DNA of 64,000 nt, taken from Lingula anatina. Taxonomy: Eukaryota > Animalia > Brachiopoda. Both the position numbers and the translations under genes were made by a program. The notes below the pieces were generated by a model, which made no database searches, was not told the origin of the DNA, and worked only from the letters and a program-made list of their open reading frames with translations. The stretch is from positions 18,228,001 through 18,292,000 of the forward strand of contig CM120642.1 of the NCBI GenBank assembly GCA_051362555.1, in the 5' to 3' direction. Each line of letters starts with the position of its first letter. The stretch's first letter is position 1. This document shows positions 27,281 through 58,761 of the stretch, in pieces.

Positions 27281-27315
<35 letters not shown>

Positions 27316-28864: not shown

Positions 28865-28895
<31 letters not shown>

Positions 28896-32373: not shown

Positions 32374-32404
<31 letters not shown>

Positions 32405-33016: not shown

Positions 33017-36000
33017 ATGCCAAAGATGTATCAGCGTGCCTTCTGGCTTCCGTTGTTCCTTGCAGTCCTCTTAGTCTCTGAAAGCACAGGTAATTTTTTA
33101 TATAAATTAATAATATTTTATCTTTTGATACACCGTAAAGTGGATCGTTATTAATCCCCGTCTTTAAAATAAACAAACAAATCAATAAAACTGAAGCGTC
33201 AACGTAAAGGTAGAACTTAGTATTAACACCTTTAGCTCATGGCAAATAAGCAACGTGACTTTTTTAGTTCCAAGTCAATCTCCTGACACAAACAAATGCC
33301 GATTTTAATGGGTTTTGACTGAGAACTGCAATTTCAGAAATCTTACCTAAGTGCCTTCTTGTTAACGCTAACGATGATAAACTGTCACACAGAAAAAATT
33401 GATACTTTTTTGTTCTAGAACCATATACACAACTTCAATTTGTAACATTGGTTTTGAACCTTTGACTCGGGCATATCGTGAAATAGCTTGAGTGAAAAAG
33501 CTTCCAAAGTATTGAATGCGTACTTTTAGACAAACCTTTTACTTAGTAGTCCAGGAATTTGGTGAAAAATTGTGCATTTTTTACCTACAAGCATGAAATT
33601 TGGCACACCTATGGACAATGAAATTCTAAGCAAATTTGGATATATGGGCATGTCTGAAAATTCCAAAATGGCCGTCAAATCTAAGATGGCCACCAAAATA
33701 CCTTTTCAAATTAAAACTTCAAGTACATAGTCTTCTACTGACTTAAAATATCATATAAAGGTTAGAAAACACCATGGTATGAATCCTTCAGGTGTATAAA
33801 ATCCAAAATGGCCGCCAAAAGTAAAAAAGCAGACCATTTATTCAAGATATCCATTAGAATGGTGAATTCATCAAGCACTTAAAACTACAAGCATAAAATT
33901 TGGCACGTTTGTGGAAAATGAAATTCTGAGCAAGTTTGGATGTATGGGCATATCCAAAAATTTAAAAATGGCCCCCAAATCCAAGATGGCCTCCAAAAAT
34001 ACGGGTCCTTATTAAAACTTCAAGTATACAGTCTTTTAAGGGTTTAAATATCATTCAAAGGTTAAAAAACACCACAATATGAATTCAGAATCAATATCTG
34101 CTTCTTGAGGTGTATTAAATCCAAAATGGCCGCCAATAGTAAAAAGCATTCTACTAATCCAAGATATCCAGCAGAGTGGTTTATCAAAAACTACAAGCAT
34201 GGCATTTGGCACGTTGTAAAACAGGATTCCAAGCACTTATTGATGTATGGGCATGTCTAAAAATTCCAATATATGGCCCCTAAATCCAATATGGCCGACA
34301 CAAATACCCGTTCAAATTAAAACTTCAAGTATATAATCCTATAATAGCTTAAGATAACATTTTATGGTTAGACAAGACTATGGTATGCATGAAGTATCAA
34401 TATTTGCTTCTTTAGGTGTACAGAAATCCAAAATGGCCTCCAAAAATAAGAAAAACAGGCCACTCACAGCAGCAGTATGGTGAATTGATCATGCACTTAA
34501 AACTACAAGCATGAAAATTGGCACAATTGTACAGAACAGGATTCTAAGCAATTTTTTAAATAGGGACATGTCTGAAAATTCTAATATGGCCACTAAAACC
34601 CTTTTAAAGTAAAAAGTCTACTTCATAATCTGACTTACAACAAGCTTTACTCTTTTTTGGTTATTCGCCCTTTTAGTTAAATTAAGATCTAAATGACCGT
34701 AAAAAGTGGAACAGGACTCCTTTTGGTCCAGTTGTGACACCACATGCAGCAATTCTATAAATGTCAAGGATATGAAAATGTCAAGGTATTTTCAGAAATA
34801 AGTTTCAAATTAACAAAAGTTATTTAATCAAGTAGGTGTTGCACATTTTATGGACGATCAACCTATTACTTTAGTAAATGGACAATATCTCAACAGAGGA
34901 TAACAGCTAGCTACACCGAAATTTCTACTTATTTGGTCAAATAATTTTCATTTATTTATGTGTGCCTAGCTTTAGTTGTGTTTCCCTCAGCTTTCCCAGA
35001 ATTTGCCTAAAGCTATAGCTTCTACATGTAATCCACTTTCCCCAACAAAATACCAAGAGGTATTGGTAATTTTTAACACCAGAAAGCATCAGTTTACATG
35101 CGTGAGGGTCAATAGGAATATGAAAGTGTGGTAGGGCATATGAGTAGATGTAGGTTACTAGTGTGAGCCCTTATAGGACCAGTCTTCCAATGCTTCTGAC
35201 TCCCCTCACCACAGTTAGCAATTGCACACATAACTACAAACAGATGTGGTAGGAGCTACCTGCGAAAAGTAGGTTTTGTTATCTGGGTAAGTGAATACTC
35301 CCCATGGCTTCATTCTGGATTGTCCCAAAGAGACAATGATGCCGGAAATCTCATGAATTTTTACCTTTCAAAGTCCATATTGCACTAATTTCTTGGTGTA
35401 ATCCTCAGAATACACTGTGAATTTTTGAAGCTTTGTATGTATTAACTTTCTGGAGGATTTTAATTCTTTTATTTTCATGTTCAGTTATTTGAAAGCATAA
35501 GTTTGTAACTAAACAAGTTGCCAAATGATCAAATGAAAACCAAAGTTTGGCGCCTATCAGTGCTTCTTTTTTAGTGCACGAAGTGTGAAGCCTGCAATGC
35601 AACTCTTGGATATAGCACGTATCAACACCTGCCCTCTGTTTGGGGTTTTTCTTTGCTCATAAATTTTCAGTAGCCATTACTGCGAATGTACTAAATCCAT
35701 TTCTTGAAATAAGAAGCTTTTCTAATTTACTTTTGAAGCATAAGATAACATCATAACATTACCGAGTGCAAATGTGCCCCTTCTTTTAGTACTTTACCAA
35801 TGCAAAACACCAAATTGTTGAGACCTGTATGTTTGATTAGCTGTCATTTTTGTTATATTTGTGAGCATTTGATGAAGCACCATGCACTGATCTAGCTGAA
35901 TAATCATAACCAACAGACAAAATTGGTACACCCCAAGCTTTTTTATATTTGCCTATTTAAGGCTAAGTTATTCTGGTGTTTCTTTCACATTTTATGGATT

Positions 36001-39000
36001 TTGCACAATACTTTTTTTCTTAGAAAGGGGGAGTCACTCATGAGTGCCATATAAATAGATCGCTAACTGGGAATTGATGTAATTGAGAATCCAGAGCAAA
36101 AAGCCAAACTGCTTATGTTGGTTTATCAAAAGAAGGACTGTTTTCAGTACATAATAAATGTATCATGCTTGATGTTTTTTTTTAACTCTGTAGAATACAC
36201 ACACACCTGTACCTGCACAGGTAGGAATATTCTGATTATACAGGTAGTTGTAAAGCCCACATGCCTATTCACGAGTGATTACAATTCAATAATTGTGGTC
36301 CGCTGACTTTTGGAGGCCATTTTGGAAATTTAAAACCTTAAGTGGCAGATACTTATACTACATACATACTATGGTATTTTCTAACCATTAGATGATATTT
36401 TTTATTAAAGACTATACAAATAACTTTCACCTTGAAAGGGTATTTTTGGGGCCATATTGAAATTGACTGCCATATTGGAATTTTCAGACATGCCCCTATA
36501 TCCAACGTTGCTTAGAATCATGTTCTCCACAACTGTGCCAATTTTTATGCTTGTAATTGTAAGTGCTTGATGATTTCACCAAACTGCTGCATATTTTGAG
36601 TAAGTAGACTGCTTATTTTACTTTTGGAGGCCATTTTGGAATTCTATACACCTGTAGAAGCGGATATTGATAATTCATTCATAGCATGTTATTTTCTAGC
36701 AATAAAATGATATTTTAAACCATTATAGGACTATATATTAGATGTTTTAATTTAAAAGAGTATTTGTGGAGGCCATATTGGATTTGGCGGCCATACTGGG
36801 ATTTTCAGACATGCCCATATATCCAAAAAGGCTTAGAATTCCATTATCTACAACTGTGGCAAATTTCATGCTTGTAGGTAAAAAACGCACAATTCACCCT
36901 TTTTTTCTGCACCAAATTCTTGGACTAAGACGCTCATTATAAACATAAACCTCTTTGCGCTAGTGGTCCATCCTCAGAAAAGTGAACATTGGAGCCACAG
37001 AACTGAAGCACAAATTTTGTGTCCTATTTGCATAATTTTGGCATGCCCCATTATTTTCGTTATTTTATACTATGGTTCCCTCAAATGTGGAAAGAAATCA
37101 ATAGTAATTAAAAACTAGACTGCAACTGGCTGAAGCCAGTGGCGGAGGATTCCCCTGCAAAATAGGCGTGGAAATGCTCTTACAAGGTCATGTGAAGGTC
37201 ATGGGTTAAATTTGATCCAAAATTCTGAAAGAGCATGTGCAAAATTGGGGGGGGGGGGGGGGGGGGGGGAGTCAACAAAACATCACTTTTAGCCCACTTC
37301 AATATTTCTCCATGAAATAGCCAAATGACCTTGAAAATGAGGGTCAAGGTCAAATTTGACATTTGATTTGGGGGTTTTGGGTATATGTTTGGGGTAGTTT
37401 ACTATAGCATGCTATGACCAAAAACCAGTGTTTCACGGAGAAATTGCCAAACTCAAGATTTCTGCAATGTCATAAATATTTAAAAATCTATATTAAAAAA
37501 GTAATTAGGCAGTCGCTACCAAAGTACGGCTAACCTTAGATAAATATATAGGGCATCATTTGCCACTATGATCAGGGCTCTGGGCCTTCCGGTTTTTGAG
37601 ATCTCGGAAACAAACCTTTTTTGAGCCCGTTTGGCCATTAGTGACCTTGACCTTGACCTACTTGCATAAAAGTAGGTCATTATCTGTGGATTTGGCTCAG
37701 TATCATTGGCCATAAGGCCCTTGGCCATATGGCTTATACTTTAGGCCTAATGGTAATTTCAAATTTTACAAATTTTGCCTTTAAAAGCCCCTGTGACCTT
37801 GAAAAGTAGGTCAAGGTCACTGAAACTGGGTCTGTGGCATATTCTTACCATAGGCTACATATGATAATTATTTCAGATTTTTTGCGAAAAAAAAACGCGC
37901 GGAAAGAATAACTATAATAATAATAATAACTAGACTGCAACTGGCTAAAGCCAGTGGCGGAGGATTCCCCTGCAAAAAAGGTGTGGAAATGCTCTTACAA
38001 GGTCATGTGAAAGCCATGGGTTAAATTTGACCCCATATTCTGAAAGAGCATGTGCGAATTGGGGGGGGGGGGGGGGTCAACAAAACATCACTTTTAGCCA
38101 ACTTCAATATTTCTCCATGAAATAGCCGAATGACCTTGAAAATGAGGGTCAAGGTCAAATTTGACATTTGATTTGGGGGTTTTGGGTATATGTTTGGGGT
38201 AGTTTACTATAGCATGCTATGACCAAAAACCAGTGTTTCATGGAGAAACTGCCAAACTCAAGATTTCTGCAATGTCATAAATATTTAAAAATCTATATTA
38301 AAAAAATTAATTAAGCAGTCGCTACCAAAGTACGGCTAACCTTAGATAAATATATAGGGCATCATTTGCCACTATGATCAGGGCTCTGAGACTTCCGGTT
38401 TCTGAGATCTCGGAAACAAACCTTTTTTGAGCTCGTTTGGCCATTAGCGACCTTGACCTTGACCTACTTGCATAAAAGTAGGTCATTACATGTGGATTCA
38501 CCTCAGTATCACTGACTATAAGGCCCATAGCCATACGGCTTATACTTAAGTCCTAATGTCAATTTCAAATTTTACAAATTTTGCCTTTAAAAGCCCCTGT
38601 GACCTTGAAAAGTAGGTCAAGGTCACTAAAACTGGGTCTGTGGCATATTCTGGCCATAGGCTACCTATGATAATTATTTCAGATTTTTTGCGAAAAAAAA
38701 AACGCGCGGAAAGAATAATAATAATACCAAAAACAATAGTATTCCCCTATGGGGAATCCTAATAATAATAATAATACCAAAAACAATAGTATTCCCCTAT
38801 GGGGAATCCTAATTATATCAAACACATATGCAGATATTAAACAAAATGTGTGTCACTAAATGGGGCTGTGCATTAGCGGCCTGAATACTCATCATTATCT
38901 ACATATACAATCATCAGCGGTAACACTAGCAGCAATAACAGTGCCATTTTAAAACTGAAACGTATAATATTTGGGGGAAAAAATCCTAACAAAAAGTAAA

Positions 39001-42000
39001 CGTTTCATTACAGCCGTCCTTAAGGGGCTCTGGTCGTTCAATCAAGCCACATACACGCCAGGAAACTCATTCAGCGATAAGTCAACGCAGAATAATAAAG
39101 CAATCATCAATTCGGGATCTACGGCAACATTTGGTTCTGGATCTGGAACAGGGATAAAATTATCATCCGGTGCCTATATCTCCGTGTCCAACACTGATGG
39201 GGCATTCAGTAGCATGCTTGGAAGCTTTGCCGTGGTAATGGCGATAAAACCAACGGCACTGCAGCCGGCCACTCTGTTTGAGTTCAACAGTGATTATGGA
39301 TCCGTATACGGATCCAAAATAGAAATGGTTGCGGATCCGGCAGGATCGCTGAAAATCTACGCACCGCCGCCTATCTATGGTGAAATCAATGCAAGAACTG
39401 TTCAGGGGATTCTGAAACGTCGCAGCTGGAACTATCTCACCATTTCCTACGATTACCAGACAGGATCAATGAAGATTTACAGCGGGTCCGATTTAGTCAG
39501 AGACTATCAACTCACAGCGTTCCCAACATCTAATACAAAAGGGTTTCGGGTAGGAAAAGGGTTCACGACGTCTTCAACGTTTACAGGCCAAGTGGCGTGC
39601 GTGCAGGTGCACGACCAACCCATTACGACCAGTGCCAGCCTTAAAAAGATGTGGCAACTCTGTGGATATGAAGGTAGGTCACATATTTCTCTTTCTTGAA
39701 ATACCTCTTTGCAATTTTTGACATGCTTTATTTGTGATAAAGGCGATGGACCTTCTTTGTTGATATTTCTTCAATGCATTATGTATTATATTGGTTGCAT
39801 TGATATTTAATACTAAACTAATGACATATTCTATTTAGATTTATTTTCATATTTTAGTCCCTTCGGTTCGGGATTCTCTACCTGCAGGTAAGACTATTTT
39901 AAGTCTTCTTGACTTTTGTTAAAGTGTCTCACTCCTCGGTTGCACAGTTATTTTCTGTGTATTATGATCTACAACTCAGATATACAAATTTAATGTCACC
40001 ATGCAACAAAATATTGTCAAATATCGCATTTTGTCTTTGGCATTTCATGCATTTATAGAAAAAGTAAGTTGAAGGCTTCCTTGACGCTGCCATTGTAGAC
40101 ATTTGCAAATGATCGTCAGCGCACTGAATACGTTTTTGTTATATTTGTACAAAGCAATTAGCATGTATCTCGTGGCATCACAGTCCCATACAAAGTCATG
40201 TATTAATTGAATAAATTTCATGAAAAATTGTTATTATCATTGTATCCTTACACTTCATAAGTTTAGAACGCCGTACTGATATGTTTTCATGTTCATGAAC
40301 TTGTTTGTAACCTATTTGCAAATCTTGTTTTACTCAAATATTATTGCAATAATATAGCATCAGGTTGCCGTGGGTGATATGCTTTATCATGACCAGTATT
40401 TTTATTTATCATAATAAACATTTTGCATAATTATCATCACAGAATCTTCTATCAAAAGGTTGCCTAACGCCTATAGACCTCACCTTTGCTCTGGACGGTT
40501 CGTCTAGCATGAAGGACGAGCTCTTCAACAGCCAACTGGACTTCGTGCAAAACATGGTCGCCACGTTCGCTGTCGAGCAGTCTAAAGGTACCGCTTCGAT
40601 CTTTTTTTCCGTCTTACTTTAGGTTAGAAAACATACCTATATACATATTTTATGTCTTAATTGTCGCCAAAGTTTTTTCAGTAATTGCGTTATCAAAGAC
40701 CGGTGTACAAAGTAGAAAAGACATTGCCACTATCTACTACTGGTATATCTTTTATGGAATGCAAACCATAACACCTGTTTGCAAGTTGTTGCTTGTTTCC
40801 CTCGGAAAATTATCTAAACTTAGGACAAACCATAGGGTAGCTAAGTTAAGTTGCTTTTATTATCAGTGGCGGATCGAGAATTTTGTGAAGGGGGAGGGTC
40901 CAGTATTTTAGAGATTGACAGGCCTCGGATTGCAAGGCCGACCTTCACCCCCTTGGCGTCAGGTTCCGGACACGCTGGAAGACCCGAAAAAATTGGTGTT
41001 TTGGAGGGGAAGTGGCGCCATTTGGTACGCTTTAGAGCTATGATTCAGCTAGATATTGTTTGAAGCGTTTTTTTTTTATCTGAAATCAAAGGAGGGAGAG
41101 GGTCAGGACCCCACTGACACCCCCTTAATCCGCCAATGTATATTATCATAACATTGCATATTTTCTATTATTTTAGATCACGTTGGATTTGTAAGCTACG
41201 GCACAAAAATTGGCACATCTGTGGGTCTTAACAAGTTCAAAACAACGGCGGAGGTACTTGAAGGTCTTGGAAAATTAACCTCTCCTAAAGGGCTGACTAA
41301 CACCTATCTGGCGATAGAAGATATGATCAAGACACTGAATAATGGTAAGTTGTGCATGTTATATTACTTACACGTCCGCCCTCCTGTTCGCTCGCATGCA
41401 TGCAAACAAACACACCACACACACACATAGTAAAATGGATGTGCAACCCGAAAACTAGAATTAGATATATTTTTGAAAACTTTTAATGTTGAAGCTTTTG
41501 TATCTTCATTCTAAGACAAAAAATAATAAATTTACATTTTCTCAAATCACCTTTTCATTGTGAGAGAGTCCTAAGATTCATAATAACTCATTTCTCTCTC
41601 TCTCAAGGTGCACGCACTAACGTTCGCAAAATAGCCATCATTTTGACGGACGGACAATCTCATAATTCGAAACAAACAAACAAGGCCGCCAAAAATCTAC
41701 GTGGTTTGGGAGCTGAGCTCTACGTCATTGGTGTAGGGGTAAAAGACACAACGGGAGTGACGAAGTTGGCGGGAGATGCCTCCAGAGTATTTACCACGAC
41801 CGATTTTAAGAATGCGCTAGATCTGAAACGTAATATTGGATCAGCTGTTTGTGGGGGTAAGTCTTGGTGGAAATGACCCTAATAAATTCTTTGTCGTGCC
41901 ACACTGTCCACACACTGGAGTTCCGAATACCGATCGATATATAAACTTGTGGAAAATATACATGTGCAAGGTCCCATGTATGTTTTACATTGTACACTTG

Positions 42001-45000
42001 TGCCATTTTTCCATAAGTTTAATTTGTGTTATACCTACACTTGCTGGTCTTGTCCATCTATAGAGAATATTCCCAGAGACTATTGTCCTAACTTTGGATC
42101 GATCTATCTCTAAGGGAGTTCTCACTAAATTGCTATCAAGTTAAGTGGCCTAGATGTCTCGCACGCCCACTGAAGCTGTTAGAGGGCAATTAACTATCGT
42201 TCACTGCTTCAGTAAGCGTGTTAGACATCTAAGCCGTTCAAGTTAAAGGCAACCTAGCGAGAAATCCCTTGGAGATTGGTCGATCCAGTTAGGTCGATCT
42301 AGGCATGGGAACCCAGTCTATGTCTTTGCAGTAAACGCATCACTTTAGTTACCTATTACTGTATTTCTTGTTGCTCTGACATACAAGTCTTAAACATCTT
42401 GTTTAACCATTTGTATGAATAATGCAATTGTAAAATACCAGTCTGCCTCACGTTTCTCTCTTTACATCACTAATAAGAACACACTGTCATGGAAAGAGTT
42501 AAAACACTAGTGGAACAAAACTTGAGAACATATGAATATTTGCATTAGTTTTGTTGTAGATAAATGTTCCACAAATGTGTGTAGAAATGGTGGCACGTGT
42601 CACATGGGACCTGGTGGTAAAGAACGCTGTGATTGTGCCCCCGTCTTCACTGGCGACAAGTAAGATTTCACTTTCTTTCTTTGTCTATTATGTTAAATAA
42701 AAAAAGACCTCACTAAATTTCCTAAAGACTGACATTTGAATCTTGGCAAAAGCGTGTTTTTTGAGCGAATGGTCAAAAATGGTTCGGAATGTGTGACAAA
42801 AAAGTACCAAAAGACTCCCAGTATATGATCTCTTAATGGGAACAAATGTAAAAAAAAGTACGCCATGACTTACTTGAATATTCTATTGTGTGATTCAGAT
42901 GTGAGACAAACATCAACCAATGCGGCCTCAACAACCCATGTTTGAATGGTGCAACGTGTAAGGTGGATCTCAAGACTGCTGCCGTCCTCTGCTCTTGTCC
43001 GCCTGGGTTCAGTGGGAAATTGTGTAATATTAAAGATCCCTGCGCTAGTCTTATCTGTGCCAATGGTGGAAAGTGCCTAGCAAATGGAAAGAATGCCATT
43101 TGCAACTGCCCGAAAGGGTTCGCCGGTGATAGGTGCCAAACCATAATTTACTGTGCCTCACACCCTTGTCAAAATGGCGGGAGCTGTCAGGAGGGCAATG
43201 GGAAATATTCTTGTGTCTGCCAGCGAGGGTTTTCTGGGGTGAACTGTGAATTGCCCATTGACCATTGTTTGTCATCACCCTGTAAGAACGGTGCAAGCTG
43301 CTCCAGCGTTCCCGGTCAGTACATTTGTGTCTGTGCCGCCGATTTCACGGGTAAAACATGTGATAAGAAGATAGACAATTGCGCGTCCAGACCATGTCAA
43401 CATGGCGGCGCCTGTGTGGATGGAATCAATGACTTTTCTTGCAAATGTCCAAATGGGTTTAAAGGGAAAACGTGTAGCGAAATCGATGGGTGCCACTCAA
43501 ACCCTTGCCAGAATCAGGGTTTCTGTGTCGCGGTCGACAAATTGGGAGGATTTAAGTGTACGTGCCGTGCAGGATTCACGGGAACCAAATGTGAGAGCAA
43601 TATAGATGAATGTGCATCGCAGCCGTGTGTCAATAACGCTACATGTGTGGATGGTGTGAACTCGTTTCACTGCCAGTGCTATCCGGGTACCGAAGGATCA
43701 ACTTGTAGCATAGTTACCAACGGCTGCTGGTCAAGCCCGTGTAAGAACGGCGCCACGTGTAAAGGGAGGTTTGGAGGCTACACATGCCAATGTCCACCAA
43801 AATATACCGGCAAAAATTGCCAAACTGAGATCAATTTCTGCGCTTCGAACCCATGTCAGAACGGCGCCACGTGCATTGACGGGAAATCCGGATTCAGCTG
43901 CCGGTGTCTCAAACACTTCACAGGGCCTACTTGTGGGACAGCGGTGGATTACTGCGTGTCTTCGCCATGTCGTAATGGAGGCACATGTCAACGAAAACTT
44001 GGCGGCTACACATGTAAGTGCAGTGCAACATTTCATGGGGCTCACTGTGAGACTGCAGTCGACTTTTGCCGATCTTCACCGTGTTCAAACGGCGGCAAAT
44101 GTACAAGCCAGCCGAGCGGGTACCAATGCGTTTGTCCTCCGTTTTACACCGGCAAACAGTGTCAGACGCAAATAAATTTCTGCAATTCTTCTCCATGCCT
44201 GAATGGAGCAACGTGTAACAGTGTGTTGGGAGGTTACAGTTGTAAATGCAGTCCTTTTTACACCGGTAAACATTGCCAGACGCAAGTAGATTTCTGCAAT
44301 TCTTCCCCTTGTTTGAACGGAGCAACGTGTAACAGTGTGTTGGGGGGTTACAGTTGTAAATGCGGTCCTTTTTACACCGGTAAACAGTGCCAGATGCAGG
44401 TAGATTTCTGCAAGTCGTCCCCATGTTTAAATGGAGGTATAGGGGAGAGCGGGGTGGGTTGGAACGCGGGTAAGTTGGAACATTGGCTTTATTTCTTAAA
44501 CCACAAGACCGATCATGTGCTCCTTCAGCATAAAAATGTCACGTGGCATGGTCATTCATCCGGTAAACTTGTGGAAGTTTCGAAAATGCAGTAAAAGTTT
44601 TATGCGAAAAAAACTTATTTTTGCTACTCGAAGTAAGTTTTCATATTTTTGACATTCATCGTGCTGTAAACTAAAGTATAAGGATTATATCACTGAAATT
44701 GTGCATAGCGTTTAGGACCACCTTGATGTTCAAAAAGCTGTCGTTTTTTTTAAACACTTCCCACGTGTTAAAGAAATACAGTGTCATAAGTAGGCCATGA
44801 CGTCATGGGGGCTGGTCGGAACATTTGACATGGGGCCAGTTGGAACACTGTCAGGGGTGTTCCAACCCACCCCGCACGGTGTTTTTCATTTTTTTAAACC
44901 TCTCTAAATATTTTAATTTCAACTTTGAAGAGAGTAGTAACGTAGTAACCCAGTACAACTCCAACTGGAGACGGAATCTAGCTGATAGAACATCTCCATG

Positions 45001-48000
45001 ATGCCGGAATGTACATGCGTTTAGAAGATACAAGGGGGGATGGTCACTGCTTGTTAAATGCAGTTGCTAGCTGTTTGGTCGAATAGGGGTCTGCATGCCC
45101 ACTGTTGCTTTTTGCGATAAATTGCTTTTAAATGTGGAAGGAAATGTCGATTATTACTCTGCTTTTCGCGGCAAAATGAAAATATTCTAGCTGAGAGCCT
45201 ATGTTATGGATAAACTATACAACACCAATTCTGCCGATATTGTTTTAAATGCTTTGTGTAATGGATTGGGGGTTGCTGTCAATGTTTAGTGAACGAGGGT
45301 ACAAAATCCGCCAGAAAAGACAAACATTCACCTCGTAACTTAGGCAAAGATTCAGTTGAAATCTCAGTTGCCCTCACCGGAAGAGGTGCTACAACACACT
45401 AAAGCGCACTTAAGAAAACCCCAAAACAGCTCAAGTCCAGAGGCTCACCGTCGCAGTCCAAAGATTAAAAGAAGAAAACGATGCAGTGCAGTACTAACTG
45501 ACACACCTGAAAATGAGCTACTCGAAAAAGAAAAGGCCAAGCCCAACAAAATTAAAAAGGACAAGCGCAACAAAAATAAAAAACAGTTAAAGATTTCTAG
45601 TCGATAGAGAAAATCAAGAAAAAGGAAATTAAAGATGACCAGCGATTCTGTGTCAGAAGAAGAGTGGCCATGTCTGGTTTGTGGGGAGCCGTTCATTAAC
45701 AGCCGACCAAAAGAGAAATGGGTTAAATGCATTGTTTGTCTAAAGTGGTCACATGAAGACTGTAAGGGTGACCGAGTGTACATATGTCAGAACTGCGATT
45801 TTGATTCTGAGTTGTTGAGTTGAAAGAGATACAGTTTTCATTTGTAGGTCTAACATACTGTTATTAATAGGTTGAAATATATGAGTTCAATTTCGTTTCT
45901 CTTAAACTACACCACTTTTGTTATCATTATGAAATGAAGTGTAACTGGATATGGTTTATACATCGAAAAGACTATTTGAAAGCAAATTGTAAACGTAAAA
46001 AATGCTTACAAACTATGGAGATACGAATACAAAGTAACACTTACTTGTTGGGAAATTAATATAGATAATCCTACTCTTAAAATGAATTATACTTTGAATT
46101 TATATGCAAGCGTTCCAACTCGCCCTCTTGTTCCAACTCACCCCACTGCCTGTTCCAACTGACCCCGCGGGTGGGGTGAGATGGAACGTTTTAGGAGGCA
46201 ACTTTGAGCATTTATAACTCTAAAATAAAAAGACCTACTTGATGTTTTATTTCATAGATGAGTGCGGCATATAATTTTCCCCTATCAGATTTTTTATTTT
46301 TGTCCCCAAAGCTTTGACTGCTGAGATATCGCAAAAAACGTGAAAACTGTTCCAACCAACCCCGCTCTCCCCTATGTGTACCTCAGCTTGGTGGCTTTAA
46401 ATGCACGTGTCCTTCTTTCTACATGGGTAAAACATGCGGTACTCAAATCAATTTTTGTCAGTCTAATCCCTGCCAGCATGGGTCCACGTGTCAGCCTAAA
46501 CTTGGAGGTTATTCCTGTAGTTGTAACAATCATTACACCGGTATGCATTGTCAGACGCAGATAGATTTCTGCAACTCTTCCCCATGTCTGAACGGAGCAA
46601 CGTGTAACAGTGTGTTGGGAGGTTACAGTTGTAAATGCGGTCCTTTTTACACCGGTAAACATTGCCAGACGCAGATAAATTTCTGCAATTCTTCCCCATG
46701 TTTGAACGGAGCAACGTGTAACAGTGTGTTGGGAGGTTACAGTTGTAAATGCAGTCCTTTTTACACCGGTAAACATTGCCAGACGCAGAAAAATTTCTGC
46801 AATTCTTCCCCATGTTTGAACGGAGCAACGTGTAACAGTGTGTTGGGAGGTTACAGTTGTAAATGCGGTCCTTTTTACACCGGTAATCATTGCCAGACGC
46901 AGATAGATTTCTGCATTTCTTCTCCATGTTTGAACGGAGCAACGTGCAACAGTGTGTTTGGCGGTTACAGCTGCAAATGTGGTCCTTTTTACACCGGTAA
47001 ACATTGTCAGACTCAAGTAGATTTCTGCAAGTCGTCCCCATGTTTAAATGGCGGTATATGTGTCCCGCAGCTTGGTGGCTTTAAATGCACGTGTCTTTCT
47101 TTCTACATGGGTAAAACATGCGGTACTAAAATCAATTTTTGTCAGTCTAACCCCTGCCAGCATGGGTCCACGTGTCGGCCTAAACTTGGAGGTTATTCTT
47201 GTAGTTGTAACAATCATTACACCGGTAAACATTGCCAGACGCAGATAGATTTCTGCAATTCTTCCCCATGTTTGAACGGAGCAACATGTAACAGTGTGTT
47301 GGGCGGTTACAGTTGTAAATGCAGTCCTTTTTACACCGGTAAACATTGCCAGACGCAAGTAGATTTCTGCAATTCTTCCCCTTGTTTGAACGGAGCAACG
47401 TGTAACAGTGTGTTGGGGGGTTACAGTTGTAAGTGCGGTCCTTTTTACACCGGTAAACATTGCCAGACGCAAGTAGATTTCTGCAAGTCGTCCCCATGTT
47501 TAAATGGCGGTATATGTGTCCCGCAGCTTGGTGGCTTTAAATGCACGTGTCCTTCTTTCTACATGGGTAAAACATGCGGTACTCAAATCAATTTTTGTCA
47601 GTCTAACCCCTGCCAGCATAGGTCCACGTGTCAGCCTAAACTTGGAGGTTATTCCTGTAGTTGTAGGAATCATTACACCGGTAAACATTGCCAGACGCAG
47701 ATAGATTTCTGCAATTCTTCCCCTTGTTTGAACGGAGCAACGTGTAACAGTGTGTTGGGGGGTTACAGTTGTAAATGCGGTCCTTTCTACACCGGTAAAC
47801 ATTGCCAGACGCAAGTAGATTTCTGCAAGTCGTCCCCATGTTTAAATGGCGGTATATGTGTCCCGCAGCTTGGTGGCTTTAAATGCACGTGTCCTTCTAT
47901 CTACATGGGTAAAACATGCGGTACTCAAATCAATTTTTGTCAGTCTAACCCCTGCCAGCATGGGTCCACGTGTCAGCCTAAACTTGGAGGTTATTCCTGT

Positions 48001-48840
48001 AGTTGTAGCAATCATTACACCGGTAAACATTGCCAGACACAGATAGATTTCTGCAAGTCTGTCCCATGTTTGAACGGAGCAACTTGTAACAGTGTGTTGG
48101 GGGGTTACAGATGTAAATGTGGTCCTTTTTACACCGGTAAACATTGCCAGACGCAAGTAGATTTTTGCAAGTCCACTCCATGTTTAAACGGAGCAACTTG
48201 CAACAGTTTGTTGGGGGGTTACAGTTGTAAATGCGGTCGTTTTCACACCGGTAAACATTGCCAGACGCAAATAGATTTGTGCCAATCATCCCCATGTTTG
48301 AATGGAGCAACGTGTAACAGTGTGTTGGGAGGTTACACTTGTACTTGCGGTCCGTCTTACACCGGTAAACATTGCCAGACGCAGATAGATTTCTGCAAGT
48401 CGTCCCCATGTTTGAATGGCGCTACCTGTAAAAGTAACCTCGGTGGCTATCAGTGTATATGTCCTTCGTTTTACACTGGCAAGCATTGTGGGACCCAAAT
48501 CGATATCTGTCAGCCCAACCCATGTCAGCAAGGGTTCGCTTGCGCTCCAAAGTTTGGGGGCTACGACTGCACCTGCCCGCCTACCCACACGGGAATCCGC
48601 TGTGAGCAATGCCTGTGTCAGAACGGAGGTAGATGTGACTACAGTCCTAGTGACGGTCACGTGTGTCGCTGCAAGGCGGGGTTTATCGGGACGAAGTGTG
48701 AGACTGATGAGAACGAATGCATCAGCTACCCATGCTATCATGGCGTATGTAGGGACTTGGTTAACGACTATAAATGTGACTGTGACCCCGGATACACAGG
48801 TAAAAACTGTGACGTTAAGTCTGGCAGCTTGATTGGTTAA
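33017..48840 (+). CDS. Secreted LamG/ConA-like + VWA + about 36 EGF-repeat protein (fibropellin/Notch-like repeats), EGF exon interrupted by a transposon
   Basis: Exons 33017-33089 ([24 protein letters not shown], signal-peptide-like), 39014-39673 (LamG/ConA-like: WNYLTISYD...[12 protein letters not shown]), 39858-39887, 40459-40587 ([17 protein letters not shown] DxSxS; this acceptor is inferred from phase), 41177-41344, 41608-41856 (IILTDGQS), 42560-42659, and 42899-48840 minus the insertion 44442-46374. Phases are consistent; about 1805 aa if restored; no transmembrane segment seen. Confidence 0.8.
33547..36927. mobile_element. About 3.4-kb DNA transposon relic with long TIRs built of about 300-bp subterminal repeats (TAG termini, possibly Academ-like)
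   Basis: tagtccaggaatttggt at 33547 versus accaaattcttggacta ending at 36927. Four direct units on the left (acaagcat at about 33587, 33887, 34193, 34506) and two inverted on the right (about 36310-36890). TSD unresolved; no recognisable transposase ORF. Confidence 0.7.
37113..38813 (-). mobile_element. Tandem dimer (about 815-bp period) of a second Helentron-type non-autonomous element
   Basis: On the minus strand each unit ends ggggaatcct-ccgcc, hairpin actggct...agccagt, then CTAGTT (ctag at 37115 and 37930). The head has palindrome attcccctatggggaat, itself duplicated (38714-38760, 38761-38810), plus an (AAT)n microsatellite; tgaccttga motifs lie inside. Confidence 0.75.
40864..41138. 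mobile_element. hAT-type MITE
   Basis: Termini CAGTGGCGGAT / ATCCGCCAATG; 8-bp flanks tttattat / tatattat (1 mismatch) are consistent with a TSD. Confidence 0.75.
42061..42320. mobile_element. Fold-back MITE-like palindrome
   Basis: cctaactttggatcgatctatctctaaggga...ggcctagatgtctc...ctgaagc pairs with gcttcag...agacatctaagcc...tcccttggagattggtcgatccagttagg; the ends read TAGA...TCTA. Confidence 0.65.
42899..44441 (+). CDS. EGF-repeat exon, part 5' of the transposon (EGF 2-15)
   Basis: ORF 42942-44594 has repeated CxxxPCxNGxTC...YxCxC...GxxC units and runs into the TIR after ...PCLNGGI. Confidence 0.85.
44442..46372 (+). mobile_element. 1931-bp Tc1/mariner-superfamily (pogo-like) non-autonomous DNA transposon inserted in the EGF exon
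   Basis: TIR ggggagagcggggtgggttggaac / gttccaaccaaccccgctctcccc; TA TSD at 44440-44441 and 46373-46374. Removal restores GGI-CVPQL, identical to downstream repeats. Subterminal ttggaac/gttccaac repeats; an internal relic has a Lys-rich stretch and a PHD-type finger (45635-45823). Confidence 0.92.
45356..45823 (+). pseudogene. Transposase C-terminal relic (basic region plus PHD-like zinc finger)
   Basis: SAVLTDTPE...KKK, a stop, then [10 protein letters not shown]...[15 protein letters not shown]...YICQNCD; this tail is typical of DDE_1/pogo-like transposases. No catalytic core seen. Confidence 0.65.
46375..48840 (+). CDS. EGF-repeat exon, part 3' of the transposon (EGF 15-36)
   Basis: Resumes [12 protein letters not shown] in frame with ORF 46423-48840; near-identical 114-bp (38-aa) units; stop at 48838-48840. 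Confidence 0.85.
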   Translation, partial: CVPQLGGFKCTCPSFYMGKTCGTQINFCQSNPCQHGSTCQPKLGGYSCSCNNHYTGMHCQTQIDFCNSSPCLNGATCNSVLGGYSCKCGPFYTGKHCQTQINFCNSSPCLNGATCNSVLGGYSCKCSPFYTGKHCQTQKNFCNSSPCLNGATCNSVLGGYSCKCGPFYTGNHCQTQIDFCISSPCLNGATCNSVFGGYSCKCGPFYTGKHCQTQVDFCKSSPCLNGGICVPQLGGFKCTCLSFYMGKTCGTKINFCQSNPCQHGSTCRPKLGGYSCSCNNHYTGKHCQTQIDFCNSSPCLNGATCNSVLGGYSCKCSPFYTGKHCQTQVDFCNSSPCLNGATCNSVLGGYSCKCGPFYTGKHCQTQVDFCKSSPCLNGGICVPQLGGFKCTCPSFYMGKTCGTQINFCQSNPCQHRSTCQPKLGGYSCSCRNHYTGKHCQTQIDFCNSSPCLNGATCNSVLGGYSCKCGPFYTGKHCQTQVDFCKSSPCLNGGICVPQLGGFKCTCPSIYMGKTCGTQINFCQSNPCQHGSTCQPKLGGYSCSCSNHYTGKHCQTQIDFCKSVPCLNGATCNSVLGGYRCKCGPFYTGKHCQTQVDFCKSTPCLNGATCNSLLGGYSCKCGRFHTGKHCQTQIDLCQSSPCLNGATCNSVLGGYTCTCGPSYTGKHCQTQIDFCKSSPCLNGATCKSNLGGYQCICPSFYTGKHCGTQIDICQPNPCQQGFACAPKFGGYDCTCPPTHTGIRCEQCLCQNGGRCDYSPSDGHVCRCKAGFIGTKCETDENECISYPCYHGVCRDLVNDYKCDCDPGYTGKNCDVKSGSLIG

Positions 48841-49527
48841 AGTATTGTCAGTTTTATTTACAGTTCAAAACCCTTTCACACTTTTCTGTATTGCACCAAT
48901 TTGAGAGATTGTCAATTTTGTAGCCTGGCTTTTTCATATGAGAGCCACTTTAACCCTCTACTTGATATGTCCACTTTACAGGTATAATTTTGATCCATAA
49001 TTAGTATATTGGTGCTTGTTTAAGAGACAAAAAAACCTTGGCAGCGTAATTACACATTAAGAGCAGTCAAACTGGTACGATACAGAAAAGTGTACCCTAA
49101 AAAGGGCCACAGAGACTAAGACTAAATGCACATGTTTTTGCTGGAAATAAGTCCTTTAGTTGTAGTTCCTAAATAGCATTTTGTGTTATAATAAACGAAC
49201 AATGTCTTCATTCTGTTGGCATTACGAGAAGGCATTCGGTCACATCTAGCTTATTTGCGACCATAGCTTTAAGTAATATTTGTCTCTTGAACTTTTATTT
49301 GTTTAATTGGATCGCTTAAATTTTAAGAATAGTTTACGGAATTTATGAAATATGTAAGGCAAGGCCTTTAAGTAAAAAAAATGTGACCACAGTCACATGT
49401 TTGGTATATACATGGATGTTTTTGTGTGATGCGAAAAGATGCTCCGACTGAAAGCTGCATTGCAATTGGCTGGATTTCAAATTTCTTTGGATTTACAGAT
49501 TGGTCAACACATTATGTTTTCAGAATG

Positions 49528-49658
49528 CCGGTGTAACGAAACTGAGGGTCCGTGTAACAGTAAGTCCGCCCTCCATTTAGTTATAATGGTTAGGGTTAGG
49601 GGTCAAAATCTAGGGCTAGGCTTACCTATACTAATGAATTGGAAGCGGACCCTCTATA

Positions 49659-49700
<42 letters not shown>

Positions 49701-49730
49701 GGAGGGGGGATCTGTGTCATGTTACACCGG
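49528..49730. mobile_element. MITE family A, reverse orientation, with expanded poly-G
   Basis: ccggtgtaacgaaactgagggtccgtgtaacag...ggttagggttaggggtcaaaatctaggg...gttacaccgg is reverse-complementary to 31996-32172. Confidence 0.7.
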
Positions 49731-52700
49731 CCATGTAGGGATGAGCTAAAAGACGTGCTGTTGAGTTTAACCAACTAAATAATTGGTTAGTTCAATTAAG
49801 CGAAATCCGTTTATGGAATGACTTATATTACTAAGTGAGGTTGAAATTAGTGAAACTTAAAACTTTCATTAGGAAAACTTGAAATAATGCCTTGTGTTGA
49901 ATTAAGGCTTGGATGAAGAAAGGGTTTTCGGGTGTATTTTGAAAAGATTCTTGTTTAACTTTAACAAAAACGCTTGTAGTTACATTTAAGAAAATAAAAG
50001 ATCAATAAATTCAAAAACAATACCAGTTTGTCATTGTACTTGTTTTTATATTCAATTTCTATATTCTATACACGAATATAGGCCAATATAATGATTAAAA
50101 CAACAACAAGTCGTCTGTGTAATTAATACATATTATTTACATATTACACCACAGTAGCTTACAGTGAATATACAATGAATATGGCGACAAGTTCACACAA
50201 ATTTTATAAAAAATCATATTGGATGACATTTCGTTCCAATATAAATGACTGACAACATTAAGTTTCTATACCAGCACAGGGACATTGCTTGATGTGAAGT
50301 TTTCATTTTAATGGGAAACGAGGACTGACTTAAAAAGTAAATCCATACACAACTACCAATCTATTTATGAGGAACACAATATGTTGAAAAGGTATTTGGT
50401 AAATAAATCTCAAGTATATAACATCGCACCTCGTCTTGCGCTTATTATGTAAAGGAAACATTGCACTAAAACTACCGGCATTTCATATGAATTTCCCGAT
50501 GCAGTAGTAAATACGTATTAATTGCCGTCATATTTACTCAGAAATATGTATCAATCTATCTGAAAAAGAAATCGAAATATGGCGCTGTTGTCCGACACAG
50601 CTTTATTGAATGTAGCCCATGGTCTTGTATTGGTTTAAAGCAAATCATCTGACAACACACAGGGAAAAGTGCACATCTATACTGTTCAACATGTAAATAA
50701 CTTTGTATAGGGATTGATCGCACAGTCTTTTACATAGGTACCAAAAGGCATTCCTTGCAGTTTGATTTAAATATCTTAAGAAATAGGGCACACAAAACTG
50801 CATGTCTCGGGGCGTCTTACGTGCTTAGCACATATTTAAGAGGATAAATCTGTCATCTGTATACTATAAATAATGTGGAGCCCCTCATTACGTATTTATC
50901 GCTCTAATAAAATAAGTGACTCGTCCTTTGGCAATATACATGTTTGGAACTCCTTATGGTTTTGGACTTTTCAATTAACACTTGGACGATCGCGCGTAAA
51001 TGATAACATGCAAAAATATTTAATAAAAATATAACCCACATTTTACAAATAAAATACAGCTAATATAAAAGCATCATTACTGAAAGAGTTAAGTTATATC
51101 TTTTCTGATATACCAGATATCACGATATACAAAAAATAAGGGTTAGTACAAAACACCTACTTTAAATATCAAGGAACAAATGTAAAACATATTAACAAAG
51201 CATGGATGCATTCTGTTACATCTGTTTATGCTTTAAGCCGTTGTTACATAATTAGCGTAATGCACTAATAACAACAGAAACAGCAATAACTTAGGCCTAA
51301 ACACATTACTTCGACTATGAAGCAAGTGTCACAGTGATGCTAATATAAAACGGGTCAGTTAAAACTTCGTCTAAAATATCACCGTAAAGGCTTAAGCGTG
51401 CGTGTGCTTGGTAAAAATTATTTCAAACAAAAACATTTTCAATTTTCACATTTACACAATCACCATCCAAGTTAATGACTAAAATAAGAATCCTGCATCG
51501 AGTAAAGTTTGTCAATGGGGTTTATGAGTCCCCCATTCCTACATTCATACTACTAATATATGTTTTCAAGTAAATCACAAATAATTATGTATATATTACC
51601 ATAATAATTATGCTTAATATTCCACATTTCGTCTTGATTTCAGCAGAGAAATCCCCACTATCAAAAATCATAGGGACAAAATTGTATTTTAGAAAGTTAT
51701 AGTAAATGCTTTTCTCCTTAAAGCAGCAGCTAGTTCGGCAAGAGTCAGCTGAAGAAAAGCCAGCAGCACCACCTCCAATGAAGGAAGAAAAGAAGAAAGA
51801 TTCTGGAGCCAAAAAGGTACCATAATAACATAAACGTTTCAAGTGTCTTTTTTTTCTACATATTTTACTTTTTCATAATTTATCATTTTTAGATGCAAAA
51901 AAAAATGTACTTCCTGACTTTGAATCTTTTTTTTTTTTTCATATAACCAGCTAAAATTTTTATGGTTAAAAGTTTTTACTGATAATTGCACAGTCAGTAA
52001 CTTCTTTGCAGGGTTGTTTATGCAGGGTTTGTATTTGTAAAATTTTTTTTGCAGGGGGGCTGGTTAAGTGGAATTTTCAGATGGCCTAAGGGAAAAAATG
52101 AGATGAAGTTGCCAGATGACAGTAACCCTTCTGTAAGTATTTTGTTTTATTCCATGTATTCATCCTGCTTTCTTCTTCTCCTCCACTCTACCTTGTCTTG
52201 GTTACTTTGAGTTAAGAGTAGAATAGTGCATTTTCATTAGTGTGGCAACTAAATTTTACTGAAATTTAAATCTTTCTTTTAATTTTTTACTTTGAAAAGT
52301 GTGTGTTTATATCCTATTGATGTGATTAAATCAGCTGGTGGTACATACCTAGGAGGCAGCTGAGGCTCTCTGCTCCTCTAGTTGTGTTTATATTGTGTTG
52401 TAATGGTGACGGGCAACGTGTTTATTATATTTCAGATTGTGTGGGACCCAGTCAAAAACCGCTGGGTGAACACAGATGGAGAAGAGGAGGAGACGACTGC
52501 GGCACCGCCGCCAAAGGATACTGACCTTATGGGTAAGTGGAGATTTGTTTGCATTTCTTATCTGTTATACAGGCTTTACAATATAATAGATCCTTTCTTT
52601 TGATCATTGGGCTGTGATGGTCTGACAAAAATGCCAGAGTTGTAGTACATTTATTAATCCATTGACCTTTTGCAAGATGTCAGATTATGAAAAAATAATG

Positions 52701-53015
52701 GAACAATTCATTTTCTTTTTCAGGCAACTATGATAATAAAAAAAGGCTCTGATAAGTGACATGTGAAGTAAAAAAAAATATTATTATAACTTGTAATGTT
52801 GTTGAAAAAATTCCTGACATATTCTGCATTCTACACACACTGGACAAAAGAAGTGTCACCCCCTAACTCAGAGTAATAAAAGTAGGCAGATCTTGGGTAT
52901 TTATAATGCCTGGTCTACTTATAATGTGACTAATGAGTATAAAACCGCTATACCATTGAATTGTATTGATGGTCTTGTACATGTACAGCAAATGTTATTC
53001 CTGTCTTCCTCCAAT

Positions 53016-54234
53016 ATGGCAAGATACAGGCAATTATCTAACGGTTATAGGTGCAAGTTGTTAACCTGAAGAGGCGGAATATAAGCAATGTCAGAATATC
53101 GATACAATTGAATTGTTCAGTCAGAACCGTGCAGAGGGTCTGGTCTCGGTATAGAAACACTGGATCAAGAGACAAATTTCCTCTGATGGGTCGTCCAAGA
53201 AAAATACTGGCCGTGAAGACCGACGACTGATTTTGATGTCCAATATGGCAAGATACAAAGTTCGACACTGCTTGTCAGTTGACAACACAGTGGAACAATT
53301 TCACACATAAGAATGTGTATGTGAAAATTGCTAGGCGTCGGTTACATGCTCAGAGAGTGTACAGCAGGGTAGCAAGACTGAAACCTCTTATATCGTTACA
53401 AAACAGGCAACGTAGAGTAAACTAGGGTCAACAGGATCTGGAACTGGACAGTTCATGACAATTGGTCCTATATATTTTTCTGATGAGTGTCGCTTTGGTC
53501 TGACCTCTGATGACAGACGGGTACTATGCTGGCAAACTGATGGTAAAGCATTTGAACCACATGCACTGAATTTTCGAACCCGGAGCAGCATATTCATCAT
53601 GGTGTGGGGCTGCATCAGCATGGGGGTGTCTCGATAGTCCGAAGGTTCATTGGTCCGAAGGTTCATTGGTCCGAAAAGCGGTAACATTTTTTATCGATTT
53701 TTTAATCAAGGGTTCATTGGTCCGAATGTTCTATAGTGAACATTCGGACCAATGAACCTTCGGACTATTGAACCTTCGGACTATTGCTACGGCCCCATCA
53801 GCATCCATGGCTTGGGCGAATTGATAGTGGTTAATGGAAACATGAATCACTAGAAATATATCGATGTTTTGGAGTCAGGCTTGCTAGCATCTATTACTGA
53901 CATGTTTGGTGACAGGAATTATCCATTTGTTCACCAGGATGACAATGCTCCTTGTCACAGGCCCAGAGCAGTTGATGATTGGTTTGACCAACAGGACATT
54001 CGCAGGGTGATGTGGCCTGCCCAGAGTCCGGATGCAAACATAATAGAAAATGTGTGGAATGATATGTCAAAACTTTTGACAAATGTCCGTCTAACCAGCA
54101 GAGAAACTCTGTTATATTCAGTGTTTCATGCTTGGGCCAGCATAAGCCCTGAACGCATCAGACAATTATATGAAACCTTGCTTCGTAGACTGGCACCTAT
54201 TATTAGGTCACGTGGTTATGCCACTAAGTACTAA
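53016..54234 (+). pseudogene. Tc1 transposase pseudogene
   Basis: Probable ATG at 53016, in-frame stops and frameshifts, a nested MITE, and an intact C-terminal fragment at 53869-54234 with 34 residues between the catalytic D and E. Confidence 0.85.
53622..53796. mobile_element. 175-bp MITE nested in the Tc1 transposase, 8-bp TSD
   Basis: atcagcat flanks both sides (53614-53621, 53797-53804). Imperfect GGGG...atagtccgaagg TIRs; internal 15-bp tccgaaggttcattg repeats. Removal restores WGCISIHGLGEL. Confidence 0.88.
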
Positions 54235-55123
54235 TTTTGGACTTGAAACTGCATATTTTGGTAGAATGTATATTTTGTGATTTTTTGTGAAATTTGATGT
54301 TAATAAAATGATACCAGGAGCATATCATTCCACAGTCATTTATCTCCCCCATAGTATTGGCTCAGTAGGGGTGACACTTCTTTTGTCCAGTGTGTGTAGG
54401 TGGTGCCAAGCCTGCTCCAGCTATGGCTCCACCAGGGGGCAGCACAGGTGCAGGTACAGACATGACAGCCCCACCCCCACCTGCTGGGAACAAGTTCTCA
54501 CGGTCAAAAGCTAGAGGTAAGAGAATACAGACTTGAAAATTCTTGAGAAAATGTCTGAGGATCTAGATGCACAATGGCATTGAAAACTAGAGAGGTCTCT
54601 TTGGTTTCCTTAATTATCTTAAAATACACTGAAATGTTGTTAAATAAATTGATTTTTGTATTTTAAAGTATAATTGAAACTAATGGTGTTGACTAATTTT
54701 TTTGAGAGCTTTTAGCAATTAACCACTACCTTTGAAAAGTTGTTTTATTTTTTCTCATAAGTACATAGTTATGAGTGTCTGAAAATTAGAAATCTTGAAA
54801 AGGTAGAATATTAGAAAAAGAATGGTGTTTGAAATTTAGAAATTATTAACTTTTAACGATTTTACTGTGTGTTGTCTCTTCCCAGGTGCCAGGAACCAGT
54901 ATGTTGATGTAATGAATCCGACCAGTGCCTCTGCTGCTGGACCCCCTCCAAATCTACTGCCCATGATGCCAGCACCATCTGCCCTGCCTGCCAACCTCTT
55001 TATACCTCCTCCAGGTCTGTGATGTGCCAGCAACACACACACATGCAGACACACACACGCAGACACACACGCACGCACCTTGCATGCACACATATATACA
55101 CACACACGCACGCACCTGGCATG

Positions 55124-55159
<36 letters not shown>

Positions 55160-55785
55160 ATCAAGTATGGTATTTGCAACTATTCAGCCTTTATTGTTTT
55201 AAATTTTCTCTATAGAAGGACCCTTAGTATTGATTTTAATAATCATTCAATTTGAAATCAATTATTCCACAGCCTATGCCATTTTTCTATGGAGTTCTAA
55301 ATTTATAAAATGTTGTCTTCAGCTCCAGAAGGCAGTGATGCACAGGCTGAAGGTGTTGATCAACAACAGCAAAACACTGATCAACAGCAGCATCAACAAC
55401 AGGACCAACAACAACAACAACAGTTTCAGGATCCATACCAACAACAACAGCAGCAGCAACAGCCACCTCAGTCGCAAGTAAGACGTTTCTTCTTGATCCC
55501 TTGAAAATTTGAACAGCCATCCCAACCAGACTGTGGGACATTGTAAATTCATCCCCACCCCACCCTACCCCTTAGCTATTTTCATTTATTATGACTCTTG
55601 ACATTTGTAATTTCATTAAACTAAACACAGTGAAATACCCGTATTACCTCAGTGAAATATTGTTAAATCAAAGTTTTTTTTTTTTTTTTTACATTACAGT
55701 TCTACAACCCTGGTCAGTTTGCCCAGCAGCAAATACAGGATCAGGACCAGGTAGGTTCTGTTTTCTGTGACACATAGATAGTATA

Positions 55786-55833
<48 letters not shown>

Positions 55834-57749
55834 AATACAGGGTCAGAACCAGGTTTATGTTGTGTTCTGTGTTAGCTAGTATGCAGTGAGATGCTTCTGC
55901 ACAGACAGAGAAGCCTTTTGCCATTAGGAATTAGTCTGAGGAGACACTGGGCTAGTGAAAATTGACATTTTATATACCACTAGCCCATTTTAAGACCTTG
56001 ATTTGCCTGAAGGGCTAGTAGCCTAAAAATTTTGTGGCACAGACTGATACAGGGTATCATGATAGCAGTGTGTGAACATGTGTTATCATCTCATGTACTG
56101 GCATGCATGTAAAGAGCACGTACAAGCACGTACACCCAGAAGCATGCATACATGTGAAGTCACATTTGCACAGCATTGAGTATGAAACAACTTTGTAATT
56201 CTTCAAATCTCAGGTTTTATTTCGATCCAGTTTCACCCCTGTGTAACCACGTCATGATTTTCAATAATATTACATGTTATCCTAGAGTTAAATGTTGCAT
56301 GGCTGTCGCATGTTTTTTATTCTTTTAATTATATATTATTGTAGTTGAAAGCCTGTGTAGTGCACCTGTATAACAAATAGTGCTAGGACATTGTAATTTG
56401 TTAACAACATTAAGTTATATTTGGGGCTGGTTCCACAAATTTAAAGGATTGTAGACTGAAAATAAGTCCTAACTTTTAGATTTCAATTTTTCTTCAGTCC
56501 AGGCGTAAATATGCAGTAGTCAGCTAAAATAAAGTGACTATAGTCTAAAGCAGTTATAGCTTTTTCTTTCCCTTTTTTATTTTGATAAAACAGTGGTATC
56601 CTGGACTAAGAGACTAAATAACAAGTCAATAGTAAGAATGAAAAAAAGCCAATTATAAGTTTAAGTGAACCACCACTGATTTGATTGATAGTGGAAGATT
56701 AGGGTCTGAAATTTTAGACAAGCTTTTAGTCAAAAGATCTTTTGTGAAATATGCCCCAGCATTGTATTATGATCTCTGATTATTTGGTGACAAAACTTAT
56801 TTTTATCACAAATATTAAGAACAAGATAGTAAGTTTAAAATTTTAGTTACACTTATTAAAACCAACCAAGACCAGAAGATAAATAAATAAATAAATTACA
56901 ATTAAAAGTAATTAACTAATTTAGGTCTGACTTCAATATCATTACACATTGTAACTTTGCTTAAGTTATGGATGATCACAACACTACTTGGTTCTTAGTA
57001 TTATAAAACCCCTCGTCTTTAGTTTTAGAAACTTCAGCTTTACACACTGTATTCTTTATGTTTAAGTGATGTCTTGCAGCAAATTTTAATGCTTGATTAT
57101 TTTTTTCGTAAAGTGAATTTAAAAGAAGCATTCTCTGCCAGTATTGATGCCAGTATCTCTCCCCCCCCCCCTGAATTTATAACAAAAAAATATGGTGGGT
57201 TTGGAGGGGAGGGGGGGTGCAATAAAAGGCATTTTGCTTTACTGAGTACATTAAAATTGCTTTATGGGTCTGTCATAGTTTCCATTTTGGGTGGGAGGCT
57301 GAATTTGCCATTTTGCACATAAATGGGTTGGGAGTCACCTTACTTAGATTGTAGCTCTTTCTAGCGTGATGCTTGCTTTTATTATTATTTATTTATTATT
57401 TTATTTATTTTTTTTTTTTGGGGGGGGGGGTAATAAGAGGTTTAAGCAACATTAAACGCCCTTATACAAACACTGGTATTAAAATGTAGTTCATGGGTTA
57501 GTGCCAATAAGTAGTCTCAGCAGTACAAAGAGTAGAGAGTTTGACATGCTGAAAGTGCCCATTCTACTAGCCATGACAGGTTAAAGGACTGATAAAAAAA
57601 TCTGTTCAGTAGTTCCAAGGAACCGTCAACAATTATAAGAATTTCCTTTTTGAATTTACAGTCAGTCTGGCAAGAAATCCTTTCGTCTGGCAAATTTTTC
57701 TTAGTTGCCGAGCAAAATGGCTGGCAGTTTGAAAAGGTTCAGCATGTTT

Positions 57750-58457: not shown

Positions 58458-58505
<48 letters not shown>

Positions 58506-58726: not shown

Positions 58727-58761
<35 letters not shown>

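Follow-up and report, generated by a model that had tools for sequence, protein, structure and literature searches.

A probably polymorphic pogo-type transposon in an EGF-repeat exon of Lingula anatina: more probably a disrupted allele than a new intron

The DNA analyzed here is a stretch of 64,000 nucleotides (nt) of the brachiopod Lingula anatina (assembly GCA_051362555.1, contig CM120642.1, positions 18,228,001 to 18,292,000), called the window below, in which the last coding exon of a gene for a secreted-type protein, built of EGF repeats, is interrupted by a non-autonomous pogo-type DNA transposon. In our reading, the insertion is recent and likely polymorphic and has disrupted this allele, not given it a working intron; we put the probability of that reading at about 0.6. 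The original prediction, made from the same DNA, had proposed that splice signals at the two ends of the element could remove exactly the inserted length, so that the insertion might be an intron gain in progress. Two terminal inverted repeats (TIRs), a TA target-site duplication (TSD), a transposase remnant and an intact frame in the flanking exon are observed in the window, and an empty site is observed in another data set. As far as can be judged from the DNA, the evidence leans against a junction of 44453 with 46387 as the main outcome, given a weak acceptor, rival splice sites and polyadenylation (poly(A)) signals.

As had been predicted, the insertion adds 1933 nt, made up of the 1931-nt element and the duplicated TA, and the frame of the host exon is open again when the element and one TA are left out. 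The clean TIRs and TA duplication rule out an assembly artefact as the source of the element, of which the window holds one copy. Without the element, the host gene encodes 1805 amino acids (aa) with a single stop. Its exons run from a signal-peptide-like exon at 33017 through a LamG-like exon and VWA exons to the last exon of EGF repeats, and the gene model holds 36 EGF motifs, in agreement with the earlier estimate of about 36, with 14 of them preceding the insertion. The frame downstream of 46386 contains no stop, as claimed, but it is 817 codons long and not 805. The target site has three paralogues in the same exon, at 47057, 47513, and 47855.

The two TIRs and the TA duplication at 44442-46372 follow the structural definition of pogo-type elements, and the element shares with pogo DD35D transposons a TIR of at most 40 bp and a length within the range of 1.2-5.2 kb (PMC7386202). 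The remnant at 45344-45823 was searched with X in place of its in-frame stop; of 535 candidate proteins it matched 11, and the DDE_1 domain (PF03184) is present in 10 of these, so that its C-terminal similarity to DDE_1 transposases is a further shared feature. A profile of seven of the matched proteins aligns to the remnant only at positions 482-627 of 629 (2e-38), and the DNA-binding and catalytic (DDE) parts have therefore been lost from the element, which holds no intact pogo transposase and hence, unlike autonomous members of that group, is non-autonomous. DD35D is present in all 10 relatives checked and is found in both the Passer and the Fot/Fot-like families of the pogo superfamily (PMC7386202). 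From these sequence comparisons, the element is classified as a non-autonomous pogo-type derivative, placed to superfamily level as DD35D is common to both families.

The short motif of the element's ends occurs nine times in the whole element, on both strands. Repeats of this kind may bind transposase. The donor-like words at 44454 and 44470 both fall within this repeated motif, the latter in its second copy, and probably arise incidentally from the terminal motif that transposons of this group repeat.

For evidence outside the assembly, reads were mapped to 41100-46600 from 4 of the 21 listed runs: the RNA runs X12, X15, and X18, from three studies, and the DNA contigs of X2. An X2 contig joins 44439 to 46373, as an empty site would, at a depth of 121 compared with about 124 for unique flank. 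Predicted unitigs give the orthologous empty site one copy and a right side of 41 nt, and the paralogous site three copies and 39 nt; the depth of the X2 joint fits the one-copy orthologous site better than the three-copy paralogous one, and it is therefore probable that the insertion is polymorphic or that a second copy of the gene lacks it. The element itself reaches a depth of 1884-6766 in X2, 15-55 times that of the unique flank (about 124), which is no copy number but is consistent with many copies. The RNA records read amounted to 12.4, 9.5, and 11.1 million for X12, X15, and X18, about 6, 6, and 25% of the respective runs, with some reads dropped. Within these records no read fell on a host exon, and depth was 0 in all host-only bins save for an intronic repeat. 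A few RNA reads fell on the element, none with a joint at the proposed sites, and these probably derive from other copies.

Splice sites were scored with position matrices from 32 introns of the host gene and of a second window gene, which we take to be SEC16 from its C-terminal motifs, using leave-one-out comparison scores; the model is simple, its introns were read off the sequence without an RNA check, and adding up its scores takes no account of exon definition or RNA structure. The geometry proposed originally was recovered: a phase-0 donor, GGG/GTGGGT, at 44454; a host CAG ending at 46386; 1933 nt from that GT to that AG; and a spliced product that keeps the host length with CVPQ to GESG as its sole change. 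Splicing from the GTAAGT at 44470 to 46386 would break the frame, a caveat that had been rightly raised. The right TIR near the host CAG had been described as pyrimidine rich, and it is C-rich, but its tract stops 14 nt short of the last base of the AG. Splice-model scoring, which had been advised, places 44454 and 46386 within the range of real sites, but with the acceptor near the bottom of that range and with stronger rival sites present. The branch-point consensus YTNAY precedes 22 of the 32 acceptors in the window, as well as the two acceptors inside the element (46257 and 46288), and no such motif lies at -50 to -14 of acceptor 46386.

When 56 donor-acceptor pairs were scored, the top 16 all led to premature stops, and 44454/46386 ranked 28th. 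The best-scoring pair, 44470-46288, was considered as a rescue and rejected: it retains 114 nt in frame, but with a TGA inside. Three synonymous differences near the target distinguish the insertion-bearing repeat copy from its three paralogues; selection on the acceptor after insertion is unsupported as their source, because the contig with the empty site in X2 is compatible, though not conclusively, with this variant occurring where the element is missing.

To place the exact-length pair in context, insertion of the element was simulated at every coding TA in both orientations (506 insertions in the host gene and 564 in SEC16), and a GT-AG pair was counted if both sites lay no more than 30 nt from the element ends, the frame stayed open, and the intron had exactly the inserted length. 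Such pairs arose in 50 of the 506 and 107 of the 564 insertions (10-19%), and exact length by itself is therefore common; the TIR donor of 44454 was used in 32 and 38 of them, respectively. An in-frame pair of any kind was present in 366 of 506 insertions in the host gene and 444 of 564 in SEC16. The simulation scores leave the 44454-46386 junction possible as a minor product.

If the allele is disrupted, its transcripts would mostly end as a shortened protein. Read-through of an unspliced transcript to the stop at 44592 would give a predicted product of 1034 aa with 14 EGF motifs. Alternatively, the transcript might be cut at the sense poly(A) signals of the element, or the strong donor at 44470 might be spliced to the strong internal acceptors and lead to premature stops. 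The exact-length junction would be a minor product at most, and the insertion would likely be buffered by an intact allele or a duplicate copy. In Caenorhabditis elegans, recent exonic DNA-transposon insertions are rare, which suggests that they are purged despite excision at the RNA level (PMC12779559), in line with this reading.

Several observations weigh against this reading. The fate of the allele's transcripts is something we infer, as no RNA from the allele was present among the three runs, and the modeled pairing of the TIRs (-58 kcal/mol) could alter which splice sites are used. In C. elegans, Tc1 is excised from 90-100% of host mRNAs for 6 of 6 exonic insertions sequenced (PMC12779559). 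The X2 empty site could come from a second gene copy or a paralogous repeat, and its shorter side, predicted to be 35, is 41 in X2, which fits only if the left side in X2 is longer. In the simulations, both sites scored at least as high as the real ones in just 1 of 506 host-gene insertions, which is the real one, and in 2 of 564 in SEC16 (3 of 1070 in total), with a cut-off chosen after the real site had been seen. Among exact-length acceptors, the one at the real TA also ranks first of 16 in the gene and third of 49 overall.

Partial and imprecise rescue of the message is the main, if tentative, alternative, in which SOS splicing triggered by TIR pairing, mixed cryptic GT-AG pairs, or both would give some products in frame, with the exact junction possibly among them. 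In SOS splicing, the pairing of inverted terminal repeats (ITRs) triggers the removal of exonic DNA transposons from mRNA, a process that is efficient but imprecise and that rarely uses GU-AG; it acts on exonic copies of Tc1, Tc3, and Tc4 in C. elegans, and in human cells on those of Tc1 and HSMAR2, and its factors are AKAP17A, CAAP1, and RTCB (PMC12779559). Excision sites vary near the ITRs, and GU-AG and hybrid products are also found (PMC12779559). The element studied here resembles these substrates in its position, which the sequence places within an exon, and in its inverted ends, which pair stably in a computed duplex (-58.1 kcal/mol). As SOS excision is imprecise and mostly non-GU-AG, any rescue need not use the exact-length pair, and in this it differs from the intron originally proposed. 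Some in-frame products could also come from the 6 of the 56 scored GT-AG pairs that keep the frame, and the protein would probably tolerate damage to one of its 36 EGFs. On the other hand, the precedent, as described in PMC12779559, is limited to nematode and human cells, the TIR here has 24 nt compared with 54 for Tc1, and the internal poly(A) signals could end transcripts upstream of the right TIR. The in-frame yield may also be just 2%, the value found for Tc3::unc-22 (PMC12779559).

We regard it as improbable that a precise new intron of 1933 nt has arisen, with the GT at 44454 and the AG at 46386 mainly used and a full-length protein with four altered residues as the result. The exact length and frame speak for it, as do two sites within the range of real ones and an acceptor that none of the gene's other TA sites surpasses at exact length. 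Introners offer a precedent: these elements are spliced from exons through carried or borrowed splice sites (PMC12130899, PMC11282704), and cases that borrow a site from host sequence or alter neighboring codons are known (PMC9860276). The element shares with introners a non-autonomous TIR/TSD structure, insertion in an exon, a possible donor carried within it, a borrowed host acceptor, and zero net change in length. It differs from them in that one exonic copy is seen here, splicing is a candidate only, and stronger rival sites lead to stops. The filter applied in PMC9860276 requires at least four similar introns and, at both intron ends, similarity that begins no more than 5 bases into the exon or 10 into the intron, and the family medians range from 30 to 654 nt. 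The proposed intron is far longer, at 1933 nt. It starts within the element, leaving 12 exonic nt of element at the 5' end, and at the 3' end it runs on for 14 intronic nt of host sequence, 12 of them beyond the TA. Because these boundaries fall outside the filter and the window holds one copy, we do not class the element as an introner.

The sites themselves also argue against a precise intron. The donor scoring 11.6 sits 16 nt downstream of the proposed one, acceptors scoring 9.3 and 7.65 sit 98-129 nt upstream of the proposed acceptor, which has no branch-point-like motif, and the insertion is apparently polymorphic. Relatives of the element provide a further comparison: metagenome contigs yielded 80 related loci, 12 of them full-length with both TA-flanked ends, and 10 of these 12 begin with GGGG directly after the TA, as this element does. 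A donor scoring at least 6.7 occurs within the first 60 nt of 3 of the 12 left ends, in each case at +30, the equivalent of 44470, and never at +13, the position of the 44454 type; 1 of 12 right ends has such a donor, and random stretches have one in 10%. Judged from these ends, the +13 donor is not a conserved trait of related TIRs. A search of the metagenome contigs for the exact TIR pattern gave 0 matches. It would be more speculative still, and very unlikely, that a pogo-derived, 1.9-kb animal introner family exists with a donor in its TIR, in which TIR pairing draws the two ends together and masks rival sites and the new intron is now segregating. No title or opening abstract listed by full-text searches of a partial literature collection describes a pogo intron gain before fixation.

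A G stands directly 5' of the left TA in 11 of the 12 full-length relatives (L008, L013, L023, L025, L027, L034, L036, L040, L042, L070, and others), which suggests a target preference beyond TA.

That this is a silent or redundant gene copy left by duplication, with RNA processing under no selection, is also quite unlikely. In its favor are the large duplication of the region and the zero reads on host exons in the three poly(A) or RNA runs, each from a different study. Against it, the 1805-aa frame has no further lesion, a secreted-type gene may be tissue or stage specific, and 6-25% of each run was read.

A disrupted allele is in itself ordinary, and the value of this one lies in providing a clean, apparently segregating test case. 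An exact GT-AG intron, imprecise SOS-type excision, and truncation would each leave a distinct RNA junction, with the empty allele as control. Were the exact junction dominant, intron gain from a pogo element would have been caught before fixation.

Table 1. Features of the window discussed in the text (window coordinates; a point marks a feature without strand)
Feature	Position	Strand	Details
Repeat context: 17481-32483 recurs at 51560-64000	17481..64000	+	91-95% identity overall; SEC16 exons 98-100%
Host gene model: signal-peptide-like exon, LamG-like, VWA, 36 EGF motifs	33017..48840	+	exons inferred from sequence
Last coding exon, 114-nt EGF repeats	42899..48840	+	about 4.0 kb without the element
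TA target-site duplication, left	44440..44441	.	from sequence
DNA transposon, non-autonomous pogo-type (DD35D-related)	44442..46372	+	1931 nt; host-gene orientation; TIR, TSD, transposase remnant
Left TIR	44442..44465	+	24 nt; contains the proposed donor
Proposed donor GGG/GTGGGT, GT 44454	44451..44459	+	score 6.7; 8 of 32 window donors as low or lower
Stronger donor CGG/GTAAGT, GT 44470	44467..44475	+	score 11.6, above 30 of 32
TAA ending host read-through into the element	44592..44594	+	
GGGG-N-N-N-GTTGGAAC-type motif, further internal copies	44827..46193	.	both strands
Transposase C-terminal remnant (basic stretch, PHD-like Cys motif)	45344..45823	+	one in-frame stop; sole coding remnant of the element
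Sense AATAAA at 45575 and 46224	45575..46229	+	candidate early poly(A) sites; not in the original prediction
Two stronger internal acceptors	46238..46288	+	AG ends 46257 (score 7.65) and 46288 (9.3); not in the original prediction
Right TIR	46349..46372	-	23 of 24 positions match the left TIR; + strand C-rich
Proposed host acceptor, AG end 46386	46367..46389	+	score 4.0; 3 of 32 window acceptors lower
TA target-site duplication, right	46373..46374	.	from sequence

Protein searches with the LamG exon gave no match among longer proteins and at most 40% identity among representatives, and those with the EGF part gave a best identity of 48% among 120 listed of 4175 matches; neither a host orthologue nor a spliced protein was found in these searches. 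The gene at 33017-48840 would appear to encode a lineage-restricted, secreted-type protein without a close relative found.

The duplication of the region begins inside SEC16, which has an open frame of 2103 aa, and the 3' part of that gene recurs together with downstream DNA from 51560. The segments 17481-32483 and 51560-64000 are either a true tandem copy or an uncollapsed haplotype, and the better preservation of exons than of introns in the partial copy would fit two alleles, present either as an uncollapsed haplotype or through an unequal crossover. In both cases, DNA past the end of the window would be expected to hold a second version of the host gene.

The two duplicate units differ in their own insertions. 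A decayed element at 52834-54396 (TA at 52832-33 and 54397-98), presumably Tc1-like from its motifs, is found in the second unit only, where it lies in the TA of a SEC16 intron's TAG acceptor; the corresponding acceptor of the first unit (18768) lacks it. The duplicated TA rebuilds the TAG acceptor, with a score of 1.4 compared with 11.3 originally, and the TIR of this element offers a CAG 9 nt upstream with a score of 7.7, the use of which would add three in-frame codons. Conversely, an insertion of about 4.2 kb with internal tandem repeats (21921-26121) occupies the first unit's last SEC16 intron and has no counterpart in the second unit. Elsewhere in SEC16, intronic tandem arrays at 4463-4949 and 6342-6988, with units of 70 and 54 nt, repeat an exon edge together with its splice site and so carry several donor or acceptor copies. 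At 13795-14626, inside a SEC16 intron, about 280 codons stay open between splice-like ends; this frame has no Pfam match and is possibly an alternative exon.

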